In this document: piece after piece, positions 18,093-28,172 of the stretch
How positions within the stretch are numbered: the first letter of the stretch is position 1
How the letters are laid out: every line of letters starts with the position of its first letter
Assembly (NCBI GenBank): GCA_039188945.1
Contig: JBCCYW010000001.1
Span: 43,003 to 107,002, forward strand
DNA: 64,000 nucleotides
Source of the DNA: Patescibacteria group bacterium
GTDB taxonomy: Bacteria > Patescibacteriota > Minisyncoccia > Phycocordibacterales > UBA918
Direction of reading: 5' to 3'
Notes under the pieces: generated by a model
What the model was told of the DNA's origin: nothing
Databases searched by the model: none
The model's input: the letters and a program-made list of their open reading frames with translations, nothing else
Position numbers and translations under genes: made by a program

Positions 18093-19193
18093 ATGCAACT
18101 TTCTGTAGGAATTGTTGGGCTGCCAAACGTTGGGAAATCAACCCTTTTTAATGCACTAACCAAGAGCGCTGTACCCGCAGAGAACTATCCCTTTTGCACC
18201 ATTGATCCTTCAGTGGGGATTGTTCCGGTACCAGACAATCGTTTGTATACACTCTCAGACCTGTCAAAATCGCAAGAAACCATTCCGGCAGTAGTTGAAT
18301 TTGTAGACATCGCAGGCTTGGTAAAAGGCGCATCGGCTGGAGAAGGCCTCGGTAACCAATTTCTCGCCAACATTCGTGAGGTTGATATGATCGCCGAAGT
18401 GGTGCGTATCTTTGAAGACGAGAATATTCATCATGTTGATGGAGCAGTAGACCCTATGAGTGACATTGAAGTTATTAATCTTGAGCTCATTATGGCAGAC
18501 CAAGAGACAGTTTCGAAGCGTCTCGGTTCACTCGAGCGAGACGTAAAGCGTGGCGATAAAGAAGCTGCGAAAGAAGCTGAGGTACTGGAAAAAGTGGCTC
18601 GAGTACTTGAAGCTGGTAAGTTGGCGAATTCGACACAGTTAGAAAAAGAGGAGTTGAACCTGGTTAAGGGACTACATCTTTTAACGATGAAGCCATTTTT
18701 GTATGTCTGCAACAAAAAGAACGATGCCTTTAACTTTGATGAAAATAATGATGAGCGCTGGAAGGAGCTCCTCAATTTCTTTGAAACAACTGGCGCCCAG
18801 TATGTTGTTATTGATGCCGGAGTAGAGCATGAACTCAAAGACCTTGATGAAGAAGAGAAAACGGAGTTTCGCCGTGAATACGGTTCTCAAGCCAGTGGGA
18901 TCGACAATCTCATTCGAGCCAGCTACGACCTGCTGGGTCTGATGTCATACTTTACAACCGGTGAGAAAGAGACTCGTGCCTGGACCATTGAGAAGGGGAG
19001 TACTGGCCCCGAAGCTGGTGCCGCGATCCACACTGACTTTAAAGATAAATACATTAGAGCTCAGGTCGTAGCCTTTGACGATTTTGTGGCCGCTGGCTCA
19101 CAAGCAGCCGCCCGTGAGCAAGGCAAGCTTCGTACTGAAGGGAAAGAATATATTGTGCAAGACGGTGATGTGATTGAGTTCATGCACTCGTAG
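18093..19193 (+). CDS. ychF: Ribosome-binding ATPase YchF (Obg-like GTPase family)
   Basis: GIVGLPNVGKSTLFNALT; C-terminal TGS domain. 366 aa. Confidence 0.9.
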   Translation: MQLSVGIVGLPNVGKSTLFNALTKSAVPAENYPFCTIDPSVGIVPVPDNRLYTLSDLSKSQETIPAVVEFVDIAGLVKGASAGEGLGNQFLANIREVDMIAEVVRIFEDENIHHVDGAVDPMSDIEVINLELIMADQETVSKRLGSLERDVKRGDKEAAKEAEVLEKVARVLEAGKLANSTQLEKEELNLVKGLHLLTMKPFLYVCNKKNDAFNFDENNDERWKELLNFFETTGAQYVVIDAGVEHELKDLDEEEKTEFRREYGSQASGIDNLIRASYDLLGLMSYFTTGEKETRAWTIEKGSTGPEAGAAIHTDFKDKYIRAQVVAFDDFVAAGSQAAAREQGKLRTEGKEYIVQDGDVIEFMHS

Positions 19194-19334
19194 AAAGAGC
19201 TAGATGTCTCAAAACTTCTTGTGATACTACCTAAAGTAGACTCAAGCAAAGCTAGAGAGAAAGCGACTATGTTTGGGAGGGTTTGGCTGGGGCAAACAAG
19301 GAGTGATCGAATCAGTTTTGCTTGTGTGTACAAA

Positions 19335-19604
19335 CTAGCTGCCTTCAAGTGGAGGATTCGACTTTTGCAACGGGCTCATCACATTTGGGTTCCATTCAGC
19401 TGTGATTTCACCTTCTTTCTCTTCATATTCTTTTAGTTGATGATTGAGATACTGCTGCAAACGCTTGGCATGAGCTGGGGTCAGCGAGTAAATTTGGGCT
19501 TGCGATCCTGAAATGATACCCATCACAAAATATTCTGGGGTATAGCCAATTTTAATATTCTCAGCAAACAGCTTGGGTGCCTTCTTTAAATCATCTGGTT
19601 TCAT
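19335..19604 (-). CDS. DUF3467-family protein
   Basis: 89 aa. Pattern IGYTPEYFVMGI...LTPAHAKRL...YEEKEGEI matches the DUF3467 consensus. Confidence 0.6.
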   Translation of the reverse strand: MKPDDLKKAPKLFAENIKIGYTPEYFVMGIISGSQAQIYSLTPAHAKRLQQYLNHQLKEYEEKEGEITAEWNPNVMSPLQKSNPPLEGS

Positions 19605-19622
19605 GCAAACTATTGTACTGCC

Positions 19623-20567
19623 ATGTTACGTTCCAAGCAAAAGCGGCGTATACTAGTTGATATGAATCACACAGCGAGAAGCTTTGTTTTACAACTAGGA
19701 GCGCTTATTTCTTTATATATCTCATTATCATTTTTGCTGGTGCTCCTCTTTGGCATTATTAATTTAGCTTTTCCTGATGCTGCTGAGAGCTATTGGGCTG
19801 CGGAAAGCGCTCATAGTAGTATCCGGATCGGCATCGCGATGTTACTTGTATTTTTCCCTACCTATATTGTGCTGACCAGAATGGTTAATCAGATCAGAAG
19901 AGTAGATACAGACGGCCAATATTTAACTCTGACTAAGTGGCTCATTTATCTATCACTACTGATTGGAGGACTGGTTTTGCTGGGCGATTTAGTGGCCGTC
20001 ATTATGACATTTCTAGAAGGAGAGATTACGGAACGGTTTTTACTTAAAGCGTTAGCTATCTTGGTTGTCGTAGGTGCTGCATTCAAATACTACATTCTTG
20101 ATGCTGGTGGGTATTGGATTGATCATGTTGGTCAATCGGTAGTGTATGGCCTCGTTGCTTTTGCAGTAGTCATTGTGTCAGTTGCCTATGGGTTTGTGGT
20201 GGTAGATTCACCCGAATTAGTTCGTGAAAAGAGAGTAGACCAGAATCAGCTGCAAGATCTACAAGAAATCCAGTGGCGAGTGATTGACTATTATGCTGTT
20301 AACCAGTCACTTCCAAATTCAATTGATATGGTATTTGAGTCTGGCGTACCAACTGCTCCAGAGAATCGTGACCAGTACAGCTACACCGCTACTGAAGAAG
20401 GTTTTGAGTTGTGCGCTAGCTTTAGTCAGGCCAGTAGTCCGAGCGACAGTTGGCCATCACGACCCGCCGACAAAGATGAATTTTTCGGAAGCACCAATAA
20501 CTGGGATCATGGTATAGGGTATCACTGTTTTGTAAGACCACTCCTTTCATCTGATGTGAGCGGGTAG
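19623..20567 (+). CDS. Polytopic membrane protein with a C-terminal pseudopilin-like segment
   Basis: About 5 TM helices. The segment QDLQEIQWRVIDYYAVNQSLPNSIDMV resembles the type II secretion / pilin G-domain motif. Start is uncertain (alternative Met at 19662). Confidence 0.4.
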   Translation: MLRSKQKRRILVDMNHTARSFVLQLGALISLYISLSFLLVLLFGIINLAFPDAAESYWAAESAHSSIRIGIAMLLVFFPTYIVLTRMVNQIRRVDTDGQYLTLTKWLIYLSLLIGGLVLLGDLVAVIMTFLEGEITERFLLKALAILVVVGAAFKYYILDAGGYWIDHVGQSVVYGLVAFAVVIVSVAYGFVVVDSPELVREKRVDQNQLQDLQEIQWRVIDYYAVNQSLPNSIDMVFESGVPTAPENRDQYSYTATEEGFELCASFSQASSPSDSWPSRPADKDEFFGSTNNWDHGIGYHCFVRPLLSSDVSG

Positions 20568-20621
20568 TGCATTCTCTACATAACTTTACGCTTCTAGGTT
20601 GTCGTGGCAGACTAAGAGCTC

Positions 20622-23435
20622 ATGCATAAACGTTTTGATAGCGCCGCCATTGAGAAGAAGTGGCAAGAAATTTGGGCTGAACAAAAGCTCTATGAAGTAG
20701 GAGAGCGAGATACTAGTAAGGAAAAAGAATACGTACTCGTCGAACTACCGTATCCATCAGGCAATTTACACATTGGTCACTGGCACGCCTTTGCAGTACC
20801 AGACATTTACGTGCGCTTTCTGCGCATGAGTGGGAAACAAGTGATCTACCCAATGGGGTTTGATGCCTTTGGCTTACCAGCCGAAAACGCTGCTATCAAA
20901 CGCAACATCAACCCACGCGAATGGACCGAAAGTAATATTGAGTTCATGAAAGGCCAGCTCCAAAGCATGGGCGCTAGTTTTTCTTGGGATAAAACTGCCA
21001 GCACGATTGATCCTAACTACTACAAATGGACACAATGGATGTTCACAAAGTTTTTTGAAAACGACTTAGCTTATCGGGGTGAAGCGATTGTTAATTGGGA
21101 TCCAGTAGACAATACGGTGATTGCAAACGAACAGGTGTTAGCAGACGGCACCTCGGAGCGCTCGGGAGCAGTAGTGGAGAAAAAGGTGATGCCGCAATGG
21201 ATGCTTCGGATCACGAAATACGCAGACCGCCTCATTGACGACCTCGACAACCTCGACTGGCCAGAACCAATCAAAGAGGCTCAACGACGGTGGATTGGTC
21301 GCTCTGAGGGAGCGGAGATTGATTTTAAGCTATCAACTGGAGACACTGTAACTGTCTTTACCACTCGTCCAGATACGCTTTTTGGTGCCACGTATATGGT
21401 GTTAGCGCCAGAGCATGCGTTGGTTAAACAAAACAAGGATAAGATTACGAACTGGGATACGGTTGAGTCATACGTAAAGGAAGCGGCTAAAAAAGATGAG
21501 CAGGACCGCCTTAATGACACCAAAGAAAAGACTGGTGTAAAACTTGAAGGCATTACTGCCACCAACCCAGCCAACAACGAAGAAATCCCTGTCTACATTG
21601 CTGATTATGTCCTCGCTTCCTACGGTACAGGGGCAATTATGGCTGTACCGGCACATGATGAGCGTGATGGTGCATTCGCTAATAAATACAATATTAAAAC
21701 AGTATCTGTGGTATACCCTGTTACTGGTATACCACAAGAAAATCCTGAGTTTAGAGAAAGTATCGTCGCTATTGTTCATAATCCAAAAAACGATCTATAC
21801 GCAACCATTAACTGGAAAGATCCACAAAAAACTTTATTTGTTGGCGGCGGCATTGATAGCGGAGAGAGTCCTGAGCAGGCAGCAGTGCGAGAGATTCGCG
21901 AAGAAACCCCCTGTGAGCATCTTGAACTTGTTTCAAAAACTACCACAATAGAACACTCTTACTTTGCCCACTCAAAAAACGTTGCTCGAAAGATAAGCGC
22001 CATAGGTTTATTGTTTACATTAACTTCTAGTGAGGAGACGGCTCAAGCCCTTGAGGTTGATGAAGCTGACCAGTTCCATTTCGAATGGAAAGACGCTCAA
22101 ACTATCGAGCGAGAACTTGATGACGAACTTCATAAAACAGTTTGGAACATGTTGGTGAAGAAAGAGGTCTTCACTAGTACTGGAAAGCTAATGAATTCAG
22201 GTGAATTTAATGGCATGGACTCAGAAGAGGCTAAGGAAGCCATTACCAAGAAAGTTGGTGGGCGAATGACCAGTACGTACCGAATGCGTGACTGGTCGGT
22301 TGGTCGGCAGCGCTATTGGGGAGTGCCGATTCCAATTGTCTATGATCCGGAAGGTAAGGCACATGTAGTGCCTGAAGAACATCTCCCATGGCTCTTGCCG
22401 GAAGATGTCGACCACAAGCCTACCGGAGAAGCACCACTGGCAAAATCTAAAGAGCTAAAAGAGCGGACCGAAAAAATCTTTGGTAAAGGGTGGACTCCTG
22501 AAGTGGAGACGATGGATGCCTTTGTCGATTCTTCGTGGTACTTCCTTCGTTACATCGATAATCAAAACGACTCGGCTCCAGTCTCAACAGAAGCTCAAAA
22601 GGACTGGATGCCAATAGATCTTTATTTCGGTGGCGCTGAGCACACTACCATGCACCTCTTATATTCTCGTTTCTGGCAAAAAGCGCTTTACGACTTAAAA
22701 CTAGTAGCGCATGAAGAGCCATACCAGAGGCGTATCAACCGTGGGCTCATTCTTGGCCCTGATGGCAACAAAATGAGTAAGTCTAAAGGGAATGTTATCG
22801 ACCCAGACGAGCAGGTGAAACTGGTTGGCGGAGACTCGGTGAAGATGTACCTAGCGTTCATGGGTCCATATGGCGAAACCGCTAATTACCCATGGGATAT
22901 GGGTGGGATTGCTGGCATTCGCCGTTTTTTGGAGAAGGTGAATGGTTTGCATGAACATCTTGCAGACACTGAACCCGAGTCAGTGACCAAACAACTTCAT
23001 AAAACCATTGCCAAGCTCAATGACGACATTCCAGTTTTCAAGTTCAATACCGCTATCTCAGCTATGATGGTCTTTGTAAATCTAGCGGAAAAGGAGGGTC
23101 TTAGTAAAGAATCATATCGGACATTCCTCACACTACTGGCTCCATTCGCTACTCATTTGAGTGAAGAATTGTGGGAGCAGGCTGGAAATACCACTTCTAT
23201 ACATAGAGAACCTTTTCCGGAGGCAAACAAAGAATTAGTTAAAGATGATGAAGTGACCATCGGCGTACAAATTAACGGTAAGCATCGTGGTGAAATCACC
23301 ATCGCTCCCGATGCCAGCGAAACTATAGCGCTCGTGGCAGCAAAAGCCGACGCACAACTAGCAGAAAAGCTAGGGGCGAGTGAACCAAAAAAAGTCATCT
23401 ACGTACCAGGCCGGATTCTTAATATTATTATCTAG
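20622..23435 (+). CDS. leuS: Leucyl-tRNA synthetase with an embedded Nudix-hydrolase domain
   Basis: HIGH-type motif PYPSGNLHIGH. CP1 editing-domain motifs TTRPDT and GTGAIMAVPAHDERD. KMSKS. An extra ~160 aa between CP1 and the catalytic core carries the Nudix box GGIDSGESPEQAAVREIREETP. Confidence 0.95.
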   Translation: MHKRFDSAAIEKKWQEIWAEQKLYEVGERDTSKEKEYVLVELPYPSGNLHIGHWHAFAVPDIYVRFLRMSGKQVIYPMGFDAFGLPAENAAIKRNINPREWTESNIEFMKGQLQSMGASFSWDKTASTIDPNYYKWTQWMFTKFFENDLAYRGEAIVNWDPVDNTVIANEQVLADGTSERSGAVVEKKVMPQWMLRITKYADRLIDDLDNLDWPEPIKEAQRRWIGRSEGAEIDFKLSTGDTVTVFTTRPDTLFGATYMVLAPEHALVKQNKDKITNWDTVESYVKEAAKKDEQDRLNDTKEKTGVKLEGITATNPANNEEIPVYIADYVLASYGTGAIMAVPAHDERDGAFANKYNIKTVSVVYPVTGIPQENPEFRESIVAIVHNPKNDLYATINWKDPQKTLFVGGGIDSGESPEQAAVREIREETPCEHLELVSKTTTIEHSYFAHSKNVARKISAIGLLFTLTSSEETAQALEVDEADQFHFEWKDAQTIERELDDELHKTVWNMLVKKEVFTSTGKLMNSGEFNGMDSEEAKEAITKKVGGRMTSTYRMRDWSVGRQRYWGVPIPIVYDPEGKAHVVPEEHLPWLLPEDVDHKPTGEAPLAKSKELKERTEKIFGKGWTPEVETMDAFVDSSWYFLRYIDNQNDSAPVSTEAQKDWMPIDLYFGGAEHTTMHLLYSRFWQKALYDLKLVAHEEPYQRRINRGLILGPDGNKMSKSKGNVIDPDEQVKLVGGDSVKMYLAFMGPYGETANYPWDMGGIAGIRRFLEKVNGLHEHLADTEPESVTKQLHKTIAKLNDDIPVFKFNTAISAMMVFVNLAEKEGLSKESYRTFLTLLAPFATHLSEELWEQAGNTTSIHREPFPEANKELVKDDEVTIGVQINGKHRGEITIAPDASETIALVAAKADAQLAEKLGASEPKKVIYVPGRILNIII

Positions 23436-23447
23436 GCACAATGGGTG

Positions 23448-23476
23448 TTGACGTTTGTCAAATAGCATGATAAAAA
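23448..23476 (+). promoter_or_regulatory. Putative sigma-70-like promoter (TTGACG - 17 nt - TAAAAAT)
   Basis: -35/-10 hexamers with 17-nt spacing, about 65 nt upstream of the 23540 gene. Confidence 0.3.
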
Positions 23477-23539
23477 TACCGGCACGTCTAAATTCTACGG
23501 GCTAAACGGCCCAGCAGATTTATTAGAGAATGAGGAACT

Positions 23540-24565
23540 ATGATTACATTTAAACCAAAAAACGTAACGAAGAAGCTGTTGGCAGTACTGCCAGACCGGG
23601 CTTGTGATGTGCTGGAGAAGCGCTATGGACTCGGTAAAGACGGCGAAACATATACTCTGGAATCGATCGGTCAGTCATACGGTATTACCCGTGAGCGCGT
23701 CCGTCAGATTGAAAACTACGGTATTCAGAGCATTCAAAAAGCCGATGTATACGGTGAGTTTGAAGAGGTATTTGCTGAGCTGCATAAGCTGATTGATGAA
23801 CTTGGCGGCGGTCTCATAGCTGAGCATGTACTCCTTGACGAGCTTACCAACGATCCAATCCTTCGTAATCATATTTATTTCCTCCTCGTTCTTGGTGACC
23901 CCTTCTATCGATCAAAAGAGAACCCCCAGTACGCTCACCGTTGGTACACGGAAAAGAAAATTGCTGAGCTAGTTGAAAAAGCCCTCAAAAGTGTTCATGG
24001 CACCATCAAACGAGACGAGCTTATCTCTGAGCAAGAAGTACTCAATCGCTTCCGAAACGAGCTGATTGAAATTGCTGATAAGTATGATGAACAGGTGATG
24101 AAGCGCTGGCTCATGATTTCAAAGCAAATCAGTAACAATCCACTTGGTGACTGGGGACACGCAGATAGTCCAAATGTCCGCGTTAAAGGTATTCGTGATT
24201 ATGCGTACCTAGCGGTAAAGCGTCACGGTTCACCAATGCACTTCCGTGAAGTAGCAGAAGCAATTGACGAATTGTTTAATCGCAAAGCACACACTGCTAC
24301 CACACACAACGAACTCATCAAGGACGACCGGTTTGTGCTCGTCGGCCGTGGACTCTACGCTCTCTCAGAATGGGGCTACTCAGCTGGTGTCGTAAAAGAA
24401 GTGCTCCGCGATATTCTTGAAAAAGAAGGACCGCTATCTCGTGAGGAACTTATTGATAAGGTACGCAAAGAACGATACGTCAAAGACAACACGATTGTTG
24501 TTAATCTTCAGGATGGCGCCCTCTTCAAGCGCCTCGCCAACGGTACGTACGCTGTTGTTGAATAA
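23540..24565 (+). CDS. DNA-binding protein: N-terminal sigma-70 region-4 HTH plus C-terminal HARE-HTH-like domain(s)
   Basis: LESIGQSYGITRERVRQIE matches sigma region 4. PMHFREVAEAIDEL...DDRFVLVGRGLYALSEW resembles the HARE-HTH of RpoE/delta. Confidence 0.55.
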   Translation: MITFKPKNVTKKLLAVLPDRACDVLEKRYGLGKDGETYTLESIGQSYGITRERVRQIENYGIQSIQKADVYGEFEEVFAELHKLIDELGGGLIAEHVLLDELTNDPILRNHIYFLLVLGDPFYRSKENPQYAHRWYTEKKIAELVEKALKSVHGTIKRDELISEQEVLNRFRNELIEIADKYDEQVMKRWLMISKQISNNPLGDWGHADSPNVRVKGIRDYAYLAVKRHGSPMHFREVAEAIDELFNRKAHTATTHNELIKDDRFVLVGRGLYALSEWGYSAGVVKEVLRDILEKEGPLSREELIDKVRKERYVKDNTIVVNLQDGALFKRLANGTYAVVE

Positions 24566-24583
24566 GAAACGTATCGTTTTACA

Positions 24584-24620
24584 CAATGCCCGGCGACTGT
24601 TCAGCAGTCGCCGGGCATTG
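24584..24620 (+). terminator. Perfect 14-bp hairpin (terminator-like; weak T-run)
   Basis: CAATGCCCGGCGAC-TGTTCA-GTCGCCGGGCATTG, immediately after the 23540 gene stop. Confidence 0.5.
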
Positions 24621-24639
24621 TTGTACAATAGTCGTATCA

Positions 24640-25959
24640 ATGTCTGATGCAGTTAAAGCTTTGTTCGGCACACTTGGCGGCCCACTTTTGGTACTAGTGG
24701 GTCTCTATTTCATGAATCTTTCACTGCGGATCATGGGTATTGACGCTGAGCCAGTGTTTGCTTTAGTGATCGCCCTAACCCCTCTATGGCTGCCATTTGT
24801 GCTCTTTTACTTGTTTTATGACAATTGGATGGATTTTGTGCGCCTGCAGTTTGCTGTAGAAAACGGTCGAACAACGCTGCGTATTAAATTACCGCAAGAG
24901 GTATTCAAATCACCGGAGGCGATGGAAACAGTCTTTAATCAAATCCATAATCTCAATGGTCCTGACAATCTTTGGCAAGCGTACATCGATGGCAAAGTAC
25001 CGCTGATGTTCAGCTTTGAATTAGTTTCGATTGGTGGTGACGTACGGTTTTACGCCAACGTGCCAACTAAAAAAATTAAAAATCTACTCGAAGCACAGCT
25101 CTACGCTCAGTACCCAGGTATTGAAATAGTTGAAGAAACACTCGACTACACAGCTGAAATCGACAAGATCGGGGAAGACTTTGGCTGTATGTCGTTTCAC
25201 TTGGTTAAAAAGGAAGATCAGGAGTTTCCTATCAAAACCTACATTGATTTTGGCCTAGATAAAATGCCGAAGGAAGAAGAGAAGGTCGAGCCAATGGCGC
25301 CAATGTTAGAAGCGCTTGGTGCTGCCTCGCCAAACGAACGGTTATGGATTCAATTCCTAGTCAAACCGCACGGCAAGAAAAACTTTAATAATGGTCACCT
25401 TTCAGCTAGTCCTACCTGGGAAAAGAAAGTGTTTGCTAAGATTGACCAGTTACTTGGACGTGAAGGAGGTTCAAAGCTTGGCCCAGCTGAGCTGGAGCAA
25501 CAGCCCCGACTCACGACTGGTGAGCGAGACACCATCACTGCCATGGAGCGCAATGCTGGAAAGTACGCTTACGATACTGCTGTGCGCTGGATGTACATTG
25601 CTCGAGAAGGACATTTCAATGGAGATACAATTGGGCTCATTAATCGCAGCTTTAGTAATTACGACATCCTCAACCGCAACGGTATTGGCATTCGTTGGCG
25701 GACAGACTTTGATTATAATTGGTTTTCTGATTTTAGCGGCAAACGAAAGTTAAAAATGAAAAATGACGAACTGAAACAGTATAAGCTGCGCAAATATAGC
25801 AACGGCGGTCGTTCGGTAGATAAAACAAAAATAATGACTTCTGAAGAGCTCGCTACGGTATGGCATATTCCTGGGCGGTCAGTAGTCACTCCAGGACTAG
25901 CTCGCATTCCTTCTTCGCGCAGTGAAGCTCCAGCTAACTTGCCAATTAATGCTACGTAG
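24640..25959 (+). CDS. Hypothetical membrane-anchored protein (2 N-terminal TM helices plus a ~380-aa soluble domain)
   Basis: 439 aa from the Met at 24640. C-terminal ...ELATVWHIPGRSVV. No domain recognised by eye. Confidence 0.5.
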   Translation: MSDAVKALFGTLGGPLLVLVGLYFMNLSLRIMGIDAEPVFALVIALTPLWLPFVLFYLFYDNWMDFVRLQFAVENGRTTLRIKLPQEVFKSPEAMETVFNQIHNLNGPDNLWQAYIDGKVPLMFSFELVSIGGDVRFYANVPTKKIKNLLEAQLYAQYPGIEIVEETLDYTAEIDKIGEDFGCMSFHLVKKEDQEFPIKTYIDFGLDKMPKEEEKVEPMAPMLEALGAASPNERLWIQFLVKPHGKKNFNNGHLSASPTWEKKVFAKIDQLLGREGGSKLGPAELEQQPRLTTGERDTITAMERNAGKYAYDTAVRWMYIAREGHFNGDTIGLINRSFSNYDILNRNGIGIRWRTDFDYNWFSDFSGKRKLKMKNDELKQYKLRKYSNGGRSVDKTKIMTSEELATVWHIPGRSVVTPGLARIPSSRSEAPANLPINAT

Positions 25960-26991
25960 ATGCACGTTCACTATACCGACAACGTCACTTTGGTGACGCC
26001 TAAGAGAAGCTTACTGCACCGTAGTTTTCGGATCTTTGGTGTTTTGCTCGTGATTACTATTCCACTAGCGCTACTGGCAGCAGGCTATGGCTACGCACAA
26101 CTGCAGCCGCCAGATTCGTTTCCCAGCGGCGAACGCATTACGATTGAGGAGGGAAGTACTGTGCCAGAAATTGTCGCTCTATTTAAAGAAAATAATCTAA
26201 TTCGTTCACGAGATATCTTTTATCTTGCTCTCGTTTTAGCAACCGATCCAACTACAATTAAAGCGAGCACCTATCGCTTTCCAGAACCACTTAACGCAAT
26301 TGAGTTAGCGCAGCGATTGGCAGAAGGTGAGTTTGGGATCGATCTGGAACGGTTTGTGCACTACGAAGGGGAGCGAGTCGAGCAAATTGCCGAACGAGCA
26401 GAGATTGTACTGGAAGACTTTGATGCTGAACGTTTTATCCAATTAGCTTTACCAGGAGAAGGAAGATTATTTCCTGATACCTACCTAATCCCTGAGAATT
26501 TTTCGGCTGATGAACTCTACGAACTCATGATTGAGAATTTCGAAGCTCGGGTCGGCCCATTGCGACCAGCCATTGAAGCTAGCAACTTCACTGAAGAAGA
26601 GGTGCTTATTCTGGCTTCAATTCTAGAACGTGAGGCAAATTCACGTGAATCAAAGCGCATTGTATCCGGCATTCTTCAAAATCGGCTGGATATTGATATG
26701 GCGCTACAAGCTGACGCTACTATTGAATACGCACTCGAGGGCCCTCTTAATGAATTAGCGCCGGGTGAATTAGCTCGCAACTTGCAAGAACTTGAAAGTC
26801 CGTACAACACCTACAAAAATACGGGGTTACCACCAACACCAATTGGCAATCCTGGCTTAACTGCAATTGAAGCGGTGCTTGAACCAGATGCATCTTCATA
26901 CCTCTTCTATATCACCGGGCGCGACGGCAATTTCTACTACGCTAACAACTTTACTGAGCACCAGGCAAATGTGAACGCTTATTTACGTTAG
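25960..26991 (+). CDS. mltG: Endolytic murein transglycosylase MltG (YceG family)
   Basis: N-terminal TM helix. YceG signature ASILEREANSRE...IEYAL. Confidence 0.85.
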   Translation: MHVHYTDNVTLVTPKRSLLHRSFRIFGVLLVITIPLALLAAGYGYAQLQPPDSFPSGERITIEEGSTVPEIVALFKENNLIRSRDIFYLALVLATDPTTIKASTYRFPEPLNAIELAQRLAEGEFGIDLERFVHYEGERVEQIAERAEIVLEDFDAERFIQLALPGEGRLFPDTYLIPENFSADELYELMIENFEARVGPLRPAIEASNFTEEEVLILASILEREANSRESKRIVSGILQNRLDIDMALQADATIEYALEGPLNELAPGELARNLQELESPYNTYKNTGLPPTPIGNPGLTAIEAVLEPDASSYLFYITGRDGNFYYANNFTEHQANVNAYLR

Positions 26992-27119
26992 ACATTTTTA
27001 TGGTAAATTGTTGATGTGTTCGCTAGCGGCGCGCTCTTCTGTGGGAAGCCGGGATCGAGCGCGGCGTGGACCCGCTAGTGGACACACCTACCAGGCAACC
27101 ACAAGTCCTGGTGTTTTTT

Positions 27120-28172
27120 ATGAAAACTGTATTTGTAGGACTTTCAGGCGGTGTCGATTCTTCAGTGGCAGCACTCAGGCTCAAAAACCAGGGCTTTAAC
27201 GTCGTCGGAGTGTTTATTAAAGTCTGGCATCCAGATTGGATGGTGTGCAATTGGGAAGAGGAGCGACTCGATGCGATGCGAGTTGCTGCTCACCTCGATA
27301 TTCCATTTTTAACCTGCGATGCTGAAGAAGCCTACAAGCAAGAGGTGGCTGATTATTTTATCGCCGCCTACCAAGCCGGCAAGACACCCAATCCAGATGT
27401 CATGTGCAACCAGTCAGTGAAATTTGGTGCCTTTCTAAGATTTGCTAAAGAAAAGGGAGCTGATTATGTAGCTACCGGACACTATACTCGCAAGACCGTT
27501 GCCGAAGATGGTACGCAGCAGCTCTGGCGTGGCGTCGATACGAACAAAGACCAGAGTTATTTTCTCTGGACCCTTACTCAAGAGCAACTCAAACAAGTGC
27601 TGCTTCCAGTAGGCGACACAACTAAGGACAAGATCAGAGAAGAAGCTGAGGCAGCTGGTGTTCCTACTGCTAGTAAGAAAGATAGTCAGGGAATCTGCTT
27701 CCTCGGACATATCGATATTCCCGAATTCCTCAGTCATTACACTGAGCTAGTTCCAGGAGACGTTCGCAATGAAGCAGGCGAGACGATCGGACAACACGAA
27801 GGCGCCTTGGTGTATACCATCGGACAACGACATGGTTTTACGATAACTAATACAGATACTGAACCAAAACCACACTTTGTCATCGCTAAAGACACAACCC
27901 AAAACAGCATTACCGTCTCAACTGAACGCCCATTCTTAGAAAGTAGTGCACTAGTTACGTTGCTGACTCCGAATCTTATTGCTGAAATACAACCTGGAGA
28001 TAGGATTGAAGCTCAATTCCGCTATCGGCAAACACCGTTTGCAGTCACCGTAAAAGAAACTGGTAATGAAGTTGTCCTGGCGGTTGTAGAAACTACTGAT
28101 ACACCCGCTGCAGGGCAATCATGTGTACTGTATCGAGGTGAGGAGTGTCTTGGTGGTGGTATTATTGGGTGA
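27120..28172 (+). CDS. mnmA: tRNA-specific 2-thiouridylase MnmA
   Basis: PP-loop VFVGLSGGVDSSVAA. Catalytic Cys pattern. 351 aa from the Met at 27120. Confidence 0.9.
   Translation: MKTVFVGLSGGVDSSVAALRLKNQGFNVVGVFIKVWHPDWMVCNWEEERLDAMRVAAHLDIPFLTCDAEEAYKQEVADYFIAAYQAGKTPNPDVMCNQSVKFGAFLRFAKEKGADYVATGHYTRKTVAEDGTQQLWRGVDTNKDQSYFLWTLTQEQLKQVLLPVGDTTKDKIREEAEAAGVPTASKKDSQGICFLGHIDIPEFLSHYTELVPGDVRNEAGETIGQHEGALVYTIGQRHGFTITNTDTEPKPHFVIAKDTTQNSITVSTERPFLESSALVTLLTPNLIAEIQPGDRIEAQFRYRQTPFAVTVKETGNEVVLAVVETTDTPAAGQSCVLYRGEECLGGGIIG

Follow-up and report, generated by a model that had tools for sequence, protein, structure and literature searches.

What is a second enzyme doing inside the editing domain of a leucyl-tRNA synthetase? 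The question arises from the leuS gene in a 64,000-nucleotide stretch of DNA from a Patescibacteria group bacterium (NCBI GenBank assembly GCA_039188945.1, contig JBCCYW010000001.1, positions 43,003 to 107,002 of the forward strand), which we call the window and number from its first letter. An earlier note, made from the letters alone, had described a Nudix hydrolase domain embedded in the leucyl-tRNA synthetase (LeuRS) encoded there. We find that this LeuRS does carry a Nudix-fold domain, that the domain is nested within the CP1 editing domain and is probably an active hydrolase, and that near-identical synthetases carry very different versions of it, which we attribute to replacement of the module by recombination.

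A Nudix domain nested within the editing domain

Searching the whole 937-residue protein with the Pfam NUDIX profile (PF00293), a check that the earlier note had proposed, gave a significant match at aa 378-495 (46.0 bits, E 6.6e-12), above the gathering cutoff of 21.1; the excised insert segment alone scored 50.1 bits. Since the score is about twice the cutoff, the similarity goes far beyond chance. No Pfam family other than NUDIX matched the insert significantly; a single further match, to the related Nudt16-like family, was below threshold. The gene and the parts of its product that bear on this domain are as follows (aa, residues of the LeuRS protein):

20622-23435, + strand: leuS, an intact and continuous open reading frame (ORF) of 937 aa plus stop, encoding the Nudix-hosting bacterial-type LeuRS
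21285-21713, + strand, aa 222-364: CP1 editing domain, part 1 (Pfam PF13603; aligned to Thermus thermophilus LeuRS up to residue 362)
+ strand, aa 355-364: KYNIK...VV, the last stretch of scaffold ahead of the insert
21714-22169, + strand, aa 365-516 (~152 aa): nested Nudix-fold module, replacing a short CP1 surface loop
21846-21914, + strand, aa 409-431: Nudix box GGIDSGESPEQAAVREIREETPC, with metal-binding/catalytic residues E415, R423, E424, E427 and E428
21954-21971, + strand, aa 445-450: X-loop HSYFAH, with Y447 and F448 16-17 residues past the box, at the position of the Tyr motif of diadenosine polyphosphate (ApnA) hydrolases
22062-22064, + strand: E481, a Glu downstream of the box, at least 90% conserved in the insert alignment
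22086-22088, + strand: W489, near E481 and likewise at least 90% conserved
22170-22289, + strand, aa 517-~556: CP1 editing domain, part 2 (FTSTGKLMNSGEFNG...TYRM), aligned from T. thermophilus residue 377 and leading back to the catalytic core
+ strand, aa 521-531: GKLMNSGEFNG, scaffold past the insert

The limits of the insert, aa ~365-516, were set by alignment to insert-free close relatives, in which the same site holds 7-49 residues. In the alignment to T. thermophilus LeuRS, query residues 4-364 correspond to residues 3-362 and query residues 517-714 to residues 377-581, and the insert stands in place of the 14-residue loop 363-376. The extra ~160 aa reported at first are thus real, and measure ~152 aa by both kinds of alignment; the span given for them, 21698-22182, began one base out of frame, the in-frame segment being 21699-22181. 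Chance similarity or an ordinary LeuRS loop is ruled out by the Pfam score, by a confident fold model and by the short loops of the insert-free relatives.

The insert splits the match to Pfam PF13603 into two stretches, the first of which (aa 222-369) covers positions 1-145 of the 185 in the profile, and the crystallised isolated CP1 constructs 2AJG, 4K47, 3PZ5 and 7N11 run 45-55 residues beyond the insertion point. We conclude that the module lies inside CP1, and not between the editing domain and the catalytic core, where the earlier note had put it. As CP1 in turn interrupts the Rossmann fold, the module is an insertion within an insertion. In a 2026 survey of domain insertions covering 213 events, PF13603 was always the inserted partner and in no case the host (PMC13114784); in the window's LeuRS it is the host.

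GC content at third codon positions is 0.355 in the insert and 0.456 in the rest of the gene (20622-23432), and overall GC content is 0.423 and 0.464, respectively. The lower third-position value is compatible with a different origin or with weaker codon adaptation, but amounts to only ~2.5 standard errors over 152 codons by a rough binomial estimate. We rejected an intein or mobile-element origin, since the insert contains no Hint, splicing or homing endonuclease domain, the flanking repeats are short and at chance level, and the ORF is continuous. Exactly at the 5' junction of the insert, positions 21707-21736 hold a perfect 11-nt inverted repeat (TGTGGTATACC and GGTATACCACA, 8 nt apart), which may be due to chance.

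The insert is probably an active Nudix hydrolase

An AlphaFold2 model of the insert alone, built from an alignment of 30 inserts, has the Nudix alpha/beta/alpha fold (predicted local distance difference test score (pLDDT) 93.3, predicted template modelling score (pTM) 0.88). The full-length model (pLDDT 89.3, pTM 0.78) has the same secondary-structure elements at aa 376-511. As modelled, the module is a bona fide Nudix fold, predicted to fold confidently on its own. Together with the Pfam match, these models bear out the earlier description of a Nudix-fold domain embedded in a complete LeuRS.

The Nudix box, the only one in the window, reads G409-x5-E415-x7-R423-E424-I-R-E427-E428-T-P-C. It departs from GX5EX7REUXEEXGU only at the last two positions, where P430 and C431 replace G and U; most relatives have TG there. 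A near-perfect box had been claimed, and the box is indeed present with those two end positions off consensus, but it occupies 21846-21914, not 21844-21909.

We assessed conservation in 103 LeuRS with the insert, whose overall identity to the window protein is 63-71%. Mean identity to the window protein is 27% in the insert and 74% in the scaffold. Within this fast-diverging domain, E424 is present in 100% of the relatives, E427, E428 and G409 in 99%, and E415 and R423 in 83%. Because conservation concentrates on the metal-binding and catalytic residues, we suggest that the domain is under selection for hydrolase activity, and that it is probably an active Nudix hydrolase. By analogy with other Nudix enzymes, the conserved E481 may act as an additional metal ligand or as a base. 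One subclade has a degenerate box, with E415Q and R423A and ending in 'AA'.

Cassette exchange between near-identical synthetases

Across 132 proteins, the identity of the insert to that of the window is uncorrelated with the identity of the host (Spearman -0.24). Hosts that are 47-49% identical to the window's (L007-L010, L014 and L018; L denotes loci and P proteins) carry inserts 43-50% identical to the window's, and most hosts at 63-76% identity carry inserts that are ~31% identical to it. Clustering at 40% identity gives 14 insert clusters, and host pairs that are 88-96% identical fall in different ones. In pairwise BLASTP comparisons of P0002 with P0093 and of P0073 with P0083, the flanks are ~96% identical and the inserts ~25-30%, with sharp edges. 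The same pattern is seen in DNA. The leuS genes of L081 (4001-6808) and L083 (4001-6826), which lie in the same syntenic context as in the window, are 78-100% identical in each 60-nt window outside the insert, and identity drops to random over a ~500-nt block that matches the insert (L081 5075-5570). Near-identical scaffolds thus carry unlike inserts with sharp DNA boundaries; hence, we conclude that the module has been replaced by recombination. Accelerated vertical divergence was considered and discarded, as it cannot yield near-identical flanks together with sharply bounded, dissimilar inserts.

Since near-identical scaffolds accept very different modules, a co-adapted interface between the Nudix domain and CP1 is unlikely, which argues for an autonomous tethered enzyme. 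It also makes unlikely a 'novel editing chemistry', which the earlier note had raised as one possible role for the insertion.

Longer LeuRS proteins from related Patescibacteria carry further nested modules, at two sites besides the canonical one:

Second site, near the CP1 start (window aa ~240), Ham1/ITPase: L011 aa 255-413; L051 aa 246-326
Second site, alpha/beta Ser_hydrolase: P0072 aa 245-398; L044 aa 242-382; L038 aa 246-392
Second site, ASCH: L043 aa 245-343
Second site, two tandem Nudix domains: P0125 aa 239-531 (three Nudix domains in all)
Third site, after CP1, Ser_hydrolase: P0158 aa 601-766
Third site, another Nudix domain: P0146 and P0177

These extra modules often co-occur with the Nudix domain at the canonical site; L011 has Ham1 together with Nudix, and L051 has Ham1 alone. 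The occupation of other loops by unrelated hydrolase modules points to LeuRS being a permissive carrier rather than a mechanistic partner. Ham1 is a house-cleaning nucleoside triphosphate (NTP) pyrophosphatase, and its presence therefore supports the alternative, weighed below, that housekeeping hydrolases ride on an essential protein.

Distribution among Patescibacteria

The insert is present in 103 of the 120 best LeuRS matches and absent from 17 close relatives (792-961 aa). We scanned GTDB species representatives with the full-length protein and considered the best 80 loci; about 32 of these have a Nudix domain at the matching position, including loci whose host LeuRS shares only 40-50% identity. 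A survey of related genomes for the same insertion, as first suggested from the sequence, thus finds it repeatedly. Record titles of the insert-bearing loci name Uhrbacteria, Moranbacteria, Jacksonbacteria, Nomurabacteria, Kaiserbacteria, Parcubacteria and Minisyncoccia. Some TPA_asm titles on clearly Patescibacteria-like loci (Gammaproteobacteria, Saccharibacteria, Bacilli, Muribaculaceae) look unreliable.

Searched alone, the insert had no matches in a word-indexed homology search, and an exhaustive HMMER search of 1.84 billion representatives returned only 252. LeuRS flanks are present in 80 of the best 150 of these 252 matches; hence, this Nudix clade lives largely inside LeuRS. Two relatives of the insert occur in other contexts: P0201 (1318 aa) combines an M17 leucyl aminopeptidase with several GNAT and two Nudix domains, and P0246 (825 aa) combines a class I aminoacyl-tRNA synthetase fragment with DUF559 (a Vsr-like endonuclease) and a Nudix domain. 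The domain mix of P0246 could hint at a mechanism of mobility. Free-standing Nudix ORFs near or adjoining leuS occur in only 3 of the 80 loci (L021 8747-9319, L006 4764-5282 and L002 12478-12945). In L021, titled Uhrbacteria, the 191-aa Nudix ORF abuts the 3' end of the LeuRS gene, and the 142-aa insert at the canonical site of that LeuRS has no Nudix score.

The host gene and its surroundings

Apart from the insert, the protein has the hallmarks of a bacterial LeuRS. It scores 893.7 bits against NCBIfam TIGR00396 (leuS_bact; cutoff 548.4), and matches T. thermophilus LeuRS (1H3N) with 633 bits and Escherichia coli LeuRS with ~594 bits in alignments that are colinear over the whole enzyme. Every LeuRS motif quoted in the earlier note was located:

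20748-20780, + strand, aa 43-53: HIGH signature PYPSGNLHIGH of the synthetic site, with residues invariant across the family alignment
21360-21377, + strand, aa 247-252: T-rich editing motif TTRPDT, in CP1 part 1
21624-21668, + strand, aa 335-349: editing motif GTGAIMAVPAHDERD (GTG/HDxRD motifs), in CP1 part 1
22770-22784, + strand, aa 717-721: KMSKS, the second class I signature

The window enzyme therefore shares HIGH, KMSKS, the editing motifs and a CP1 domain set in the Rossmann fold with the structurally characterised bacterial enzymes (T. thermophilus 1H3N/2BYT, E. coli 4AQ7/4ARC). It differs from T. thermophilus LeuRS in having a 152-aa enzyme domain where that protein has loop 363-376, and in lacking the leucine-specific domain (~582-637). 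The latter is missing just ahead of KMSKS, where the alignment steps from query residue 714 to 718 and from T. thermophilus residue 581 to 638, skipping 582-637. This domain is typical of E. coli and T. thermophilus LeuRS and is not strictly defining for bacterial LeuRS; since insert-free relatives are colinear with the window protein here, its absence characterises the clade and has nothing to do with the Nudix insert. Judged by its sequence, the leuS product is the genome's bacterial-type LeuRS, with predicted aminoacylation and CP1 editing sites that are intact.

An identical protein at NCBI bears the title 'MAG: class I tRNA ligase family protein [Patescibacteria group bacterium]', and P0001, P0035, P0062, P0090, P0096 and P0106 are likewise labelled 'class I tRNA ligase family protein' and not leucine--tRNA ligase. 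The insert is probably the cause of this generic naming, which leaves the genome's LeuRS under-annotated.

Around leuS (window 18093-28172), the gene order is YchF GTPase, DUF3467, DUF5671 membrane protein, leuS, Sigma70_r4/HARE-HTH, DUF8128-type, YceG/MltG and MnmA. The same synteny is kept at L081-L084; the window's DUF8128-type copy has no Pfam match. In this neighbourhood, the conserved genes are unrelated housekeeping genes with no obvious functional tie to the Nudix module.

What the module may hydrolyse

A curated Nudix subfamily could not be assigned, as every NCBIfam match of the window insert and of five other insert types lay far below its cutoff. Among 30 diverse inserts, RppH-type models were matched by 23, YtkD by 17, NudB by 13 and MutT by 10; the 23 matches to the RppH models (PRK00714, cutoffs 116-259 bits) were weak, with a best E of 5.9e-8, and those to MutT (TIGR00586) likewise stayed below their cutoff of 97.9 bits. 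In a profile search, a profile built from the inserts matched MutT, Ap4A (diadenosine tetraphosphate) hydrolases, NudI and ADP-ribose pyrophosphatases at similar scores (42-56 bits); the Ap4A hydrolases among them, which come from plant, human, nematode and Aquifex, reach 42-46 bits. Foldseek ranked Enterococcus faecalis 2AZW first, followed by a list dominated by E. coli RppH entries, and an RppH-Ap4A complex is among the fold neighbours along with Ap4A and Ap6A hydrolases. Both the profile search and the fold-neighbour list place the decapping effector AvrM14 near the top. A search for anti-phage defence affiliation with PADLOC gave only a generic Nudix match (PDC-S07, 21-36 bits), which is uninformative.

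In Nudix proteins, specificity motifs are carried by an X-loop ~17 residues past the box (PMC5389931), and asymmetrical ApnA hydrolases have a conserved X-loop Tyr 16-18 residues past it (Dunn 1999, as summarised in PMC5389931). We examined a 5-residue window at this position in 180 boxes from LeuRS-type proteins: Tyr is present in 77% and an aromatic residue in 92%, and Pro accounts for 0-2% per position. The near absence of X-loop Pro disfavours the ADP-ribose motif, and the NADH motif SQPWPFPxS was found in none of the 180 boxes. The window's own Y447 and F448 agree with the ApnA-hydrolase rule, an agreement that is suggestive only, as other Nudix classes also place aromatics there.

Tentatively, and with well under even confidence, we place the module in an RppH/ApnA-hydrolase-like class, whose substrates would be dinucleoside polyphosphates such as Ap4A, or 5'-polyphosphorylated or Np4-capped RNA ends. 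A MutT/ITPase-like, house-cleaning NTPase is nearly as likely. The idea that the module acts on Ap4A, raised by the earlier note, is compatible with three weak observations, namely the Tyr or aromatic residue in the X-loop, the RppH and ApnA hydrolases among the fold neighbours, and the prevalence of RppH-type models among the NCBIfam matches.

A tethered hydrolase and its alternatives

How, then, might the two enzymes be related? We consider it moderately probable that the module is an autonomous, tethered nucleoside-polyphosphate pyrophosphohydrolase, nested in CP1 as an exchangeable cassette and standing outside the editing chemistry. The complete Nudix domain (aa ~365-516) is inserted in a surface loop near the C-terminal end of CP1; there, tethered to LeuRS by both ends, it would work as an autonomous Mg2+/Mn2+-dependent hydrolase and cleave the pyrophosphate linkage of a nucleoside 5'-polyphosphate compound. 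It would take no part in tRNA editing. LeuRS would mainly offer a loop that tolerates insertions and constitutive co-expression, and might also bring the module close to its nucleotide by-products.

Several points weigh against this picture. The strong preference for LeuRS as carrier is left unexplained by a pure 'permissive loop' model. Junction residues in the full-length model are placed confidently (pLDDT 92-95), which could mean a fixed orientation on CP1 and not a loose tether. The degenerate box of one subclade suggests that activity is perhaps not universal. The closest solved structure, 2AZW, has no function assigned to it. Lastly, the window insert itself scores 35.7 bits against MutT TIGR00586 (cutoff 97.9) and 29.6 bits against RppH (cutoff 116), and its single best NCBIfam match is thus MutT, not RppH.

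The last of these points leads to the alternative that the module resembles MutT or NudI and clears damaged or non-canonical (d)NTPs, a task unrelated to leucylation, while lodged in a permissive LeuRS loop of reduced, nucleotide-scavenging genomes. We regard this as possible, though at modest probability. Besides the MutT match, it draws on the related LeuRS that carry Ham1/ITPase (L011 together with Nudix, L051 alone) or ASCH (L043), on the interchangeability of the modules, and on a gene neighbourhood (YchF, DUF5671, YceG, MnmA) with no functional link. However, MutT scores fall far under the cutoff and are found for 10 of 30 inserts as compared with 23 of 30 for RppH models; nor does this account explain why LeuRS, and not some other abundant protein, carries 80 of the best 150 clusters. 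Coupling in cis, as the earlier note envisaged it, is a further possibility: the Nudix domain would destroy the Ap4A, Ap3A or other adenylate-derived nucleotides that arise at the synthetic site of LeuRS, uniting synthesis and turnover of an alarmone on one polypeptide. Aminoacyl-tRNA synthetases produce Ap4A from aminoacyl-adenylate plus ATP, the catalytic box is intact, the X-loop has the Tyr or aromatic residue of ApnA hydrolases, Ap4A and Ap6A hydrolases and Ap4A-bound RppH are among the fold neighbours, profile matches to Ap4A hydrolases reach 42-46 bits, and this Nudix clade is near-exclusively associated with LeuRS (the same 80 of the best 150 of 252 relatives). Against this, LeuRS is, in classical surveys, a weak Ap4A producer compared with the lysyl and phenylalanyl enzymes (LysRS and PheRS), all family scores lie under their cutoffs, the co-resident Ham1, ASCH and alpha/beta hydrolase modules have no link to Ap4A, and replacement of cassettes between ~96% identical scaffolds argues against a tuned two-site geometry. 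On balance, we think coupling in cis, as one form of the RppH/ApnA-like reading, unlikely.

Cassette turnover also argues against precise placement at a tRNA 5' end, as would be needed if the tethered domain acted like RppH or NudC and stripped the 5'-pyrophosphate or nucleotide cap off precursors of tRNA-Leu, or off other RNAs that LeuRS recruits. The host does bind RNA, the RppH and YtkD 'RNA pyrophosphohydrolase' models are those most often matched (23 and 17 of 30 inserts), E. coli RppH dominates the Foldseek list after 2AZW, and AvrM14 ranks high; yet the matches score 20-31 bits where the cutoffs are 116-259, and the role presupposes that tRNAs in these organisms retain 5'-triphosphates or caps. 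We judge an RNA-directed role improbable. Less probable still is a Nudix fold that has given up catalysis to become a ligand sensor or allosteric regulator of LeuRS, in the manner of NrtR or the NUDT9H domain of TRPM2, or a structural spacer. Such non-catalytic Nudix domains typically occur in multidomain proteins (PMC5389931), the window's box ends in PC and not GU, and the degenerate subclade has Q for E415 and A for R423. A structural spacer would have no need of a Nudix box, however, and insert-free relatives get by with loops of 7-49 residues; moreover, E424, E427 and E428 are kept at 99-100% in an insert whose mean identity is 27%, a pattern that marks selection for catalysis and the binding of metal.

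Relation to known systems

Full-text literature searching found no account of a LeuRS-Nudix architecture, in keeping with the first impression that it was not a described one. A review of the Nudix clan mentions no tRNA synthetase (PMC5389931), and the sole co-occurrence of Nudix, CP1 and aminoacyl-tRNA synthetase in the literature searched was an entry in a reference list (PMC12077802). Insert-bearing proteins are already in public databases with precomputed Pfam matches, where the architecture is visible.

Free-standing, single-domain Nudix hydrolases such as E. faecalis 2AZW, E. coli RppH/NudH and the Ap4A/Ap6A hydrolases Aquifex aeolicus 3I7U and T. thermophilus Ndx1 are separate proteins, whereas the window's domain sits within a CP1 loop of LeuRS, and solved Nudix structures are only 16-21% identical to it in sequence. 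Fusions of a Nudix domain with another nucleotide-handling enzyme are known from NadM-Nudix (NMN adenylyltransferase/ADP-ribose pyrophosphatase) and MutT1 (Nudix plus histidine phosphatase), both of which turn up among the weak matches and fold neighbours of the insert. Those are end-to-end fusions with a defined metabolic logic, whereas the window's module is an internal, nested insertion that is exchanged as a cassette. On the synthetase side, NCBIfam NF040702 (isoleucine--tRNA ligase, N-acetyltransferase domain-containing) also joins a class Ia synthetase to an unrelated catalytic domain, but with an isoleucyl-tRNA synthetase as host, GNAT as passenger and a different chemistry. In trans, synthetases are tied to Ap4A signalling through LysRS, whose Ap4A is degraded by NUDT2 or ApaH. 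That system resembles the present one in linking an ApnA-making synthetase with a Nudix-type degrading hydrolase; there, however, the two activities reside on separate proteins, and the corresponding link in the window's LeuRS is hypothetical.

LeuRS-Nudix thus belongs with known kinds of protein, combining Nudix fusion with the accretion of domains by aminoacyl-tRNA synthetases, and is apparently undescribed. Its most surprising aspects are the turnover of the cassettes and the hosting of several modules.

Implications

Among the wider readings, it is conceivable but doubtful that the module works in cis, with substrates that the synthetase itself makes or that are directed against it: Ap4A and related adenylate by-products, or nucleotide-type poisons and signals, leucyl-adenylate mimics among them, from competitors or phages. 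Cassette replacement would then reflect diversifying, arms-race selection on substrate specificity. If this were true, patescibacterial LeuRS would clean or protect itself, and would serve as a general docking platform for swappable Nudix, Ham1, ASCH and alpha/beta hydrolase cassettes.

In textbooks, bacterial aminoacyl-tRNA synthetases exemplify the conserved housekeeping enzyme built from modules. Here, across a broad swath of Patescibacteria, the editing domain of one of them hosts a second, apparently active enzyme. Recombination swaps this passenger between near-identical versions of an essential gene, and its catalytic residues are retained throughout. The family may therefore serve as a natural system for asking how an essential enzyme tolerates a nested domain insertion, what drives the turnover of the cassettes, and whether ultra-small bacteria that scavenge nucleotides physically link the charging of tRNA to nucleotide hydrolysis, be it of Ap4A, of capped or triphosphorylated RNA or of damaged NTPs.

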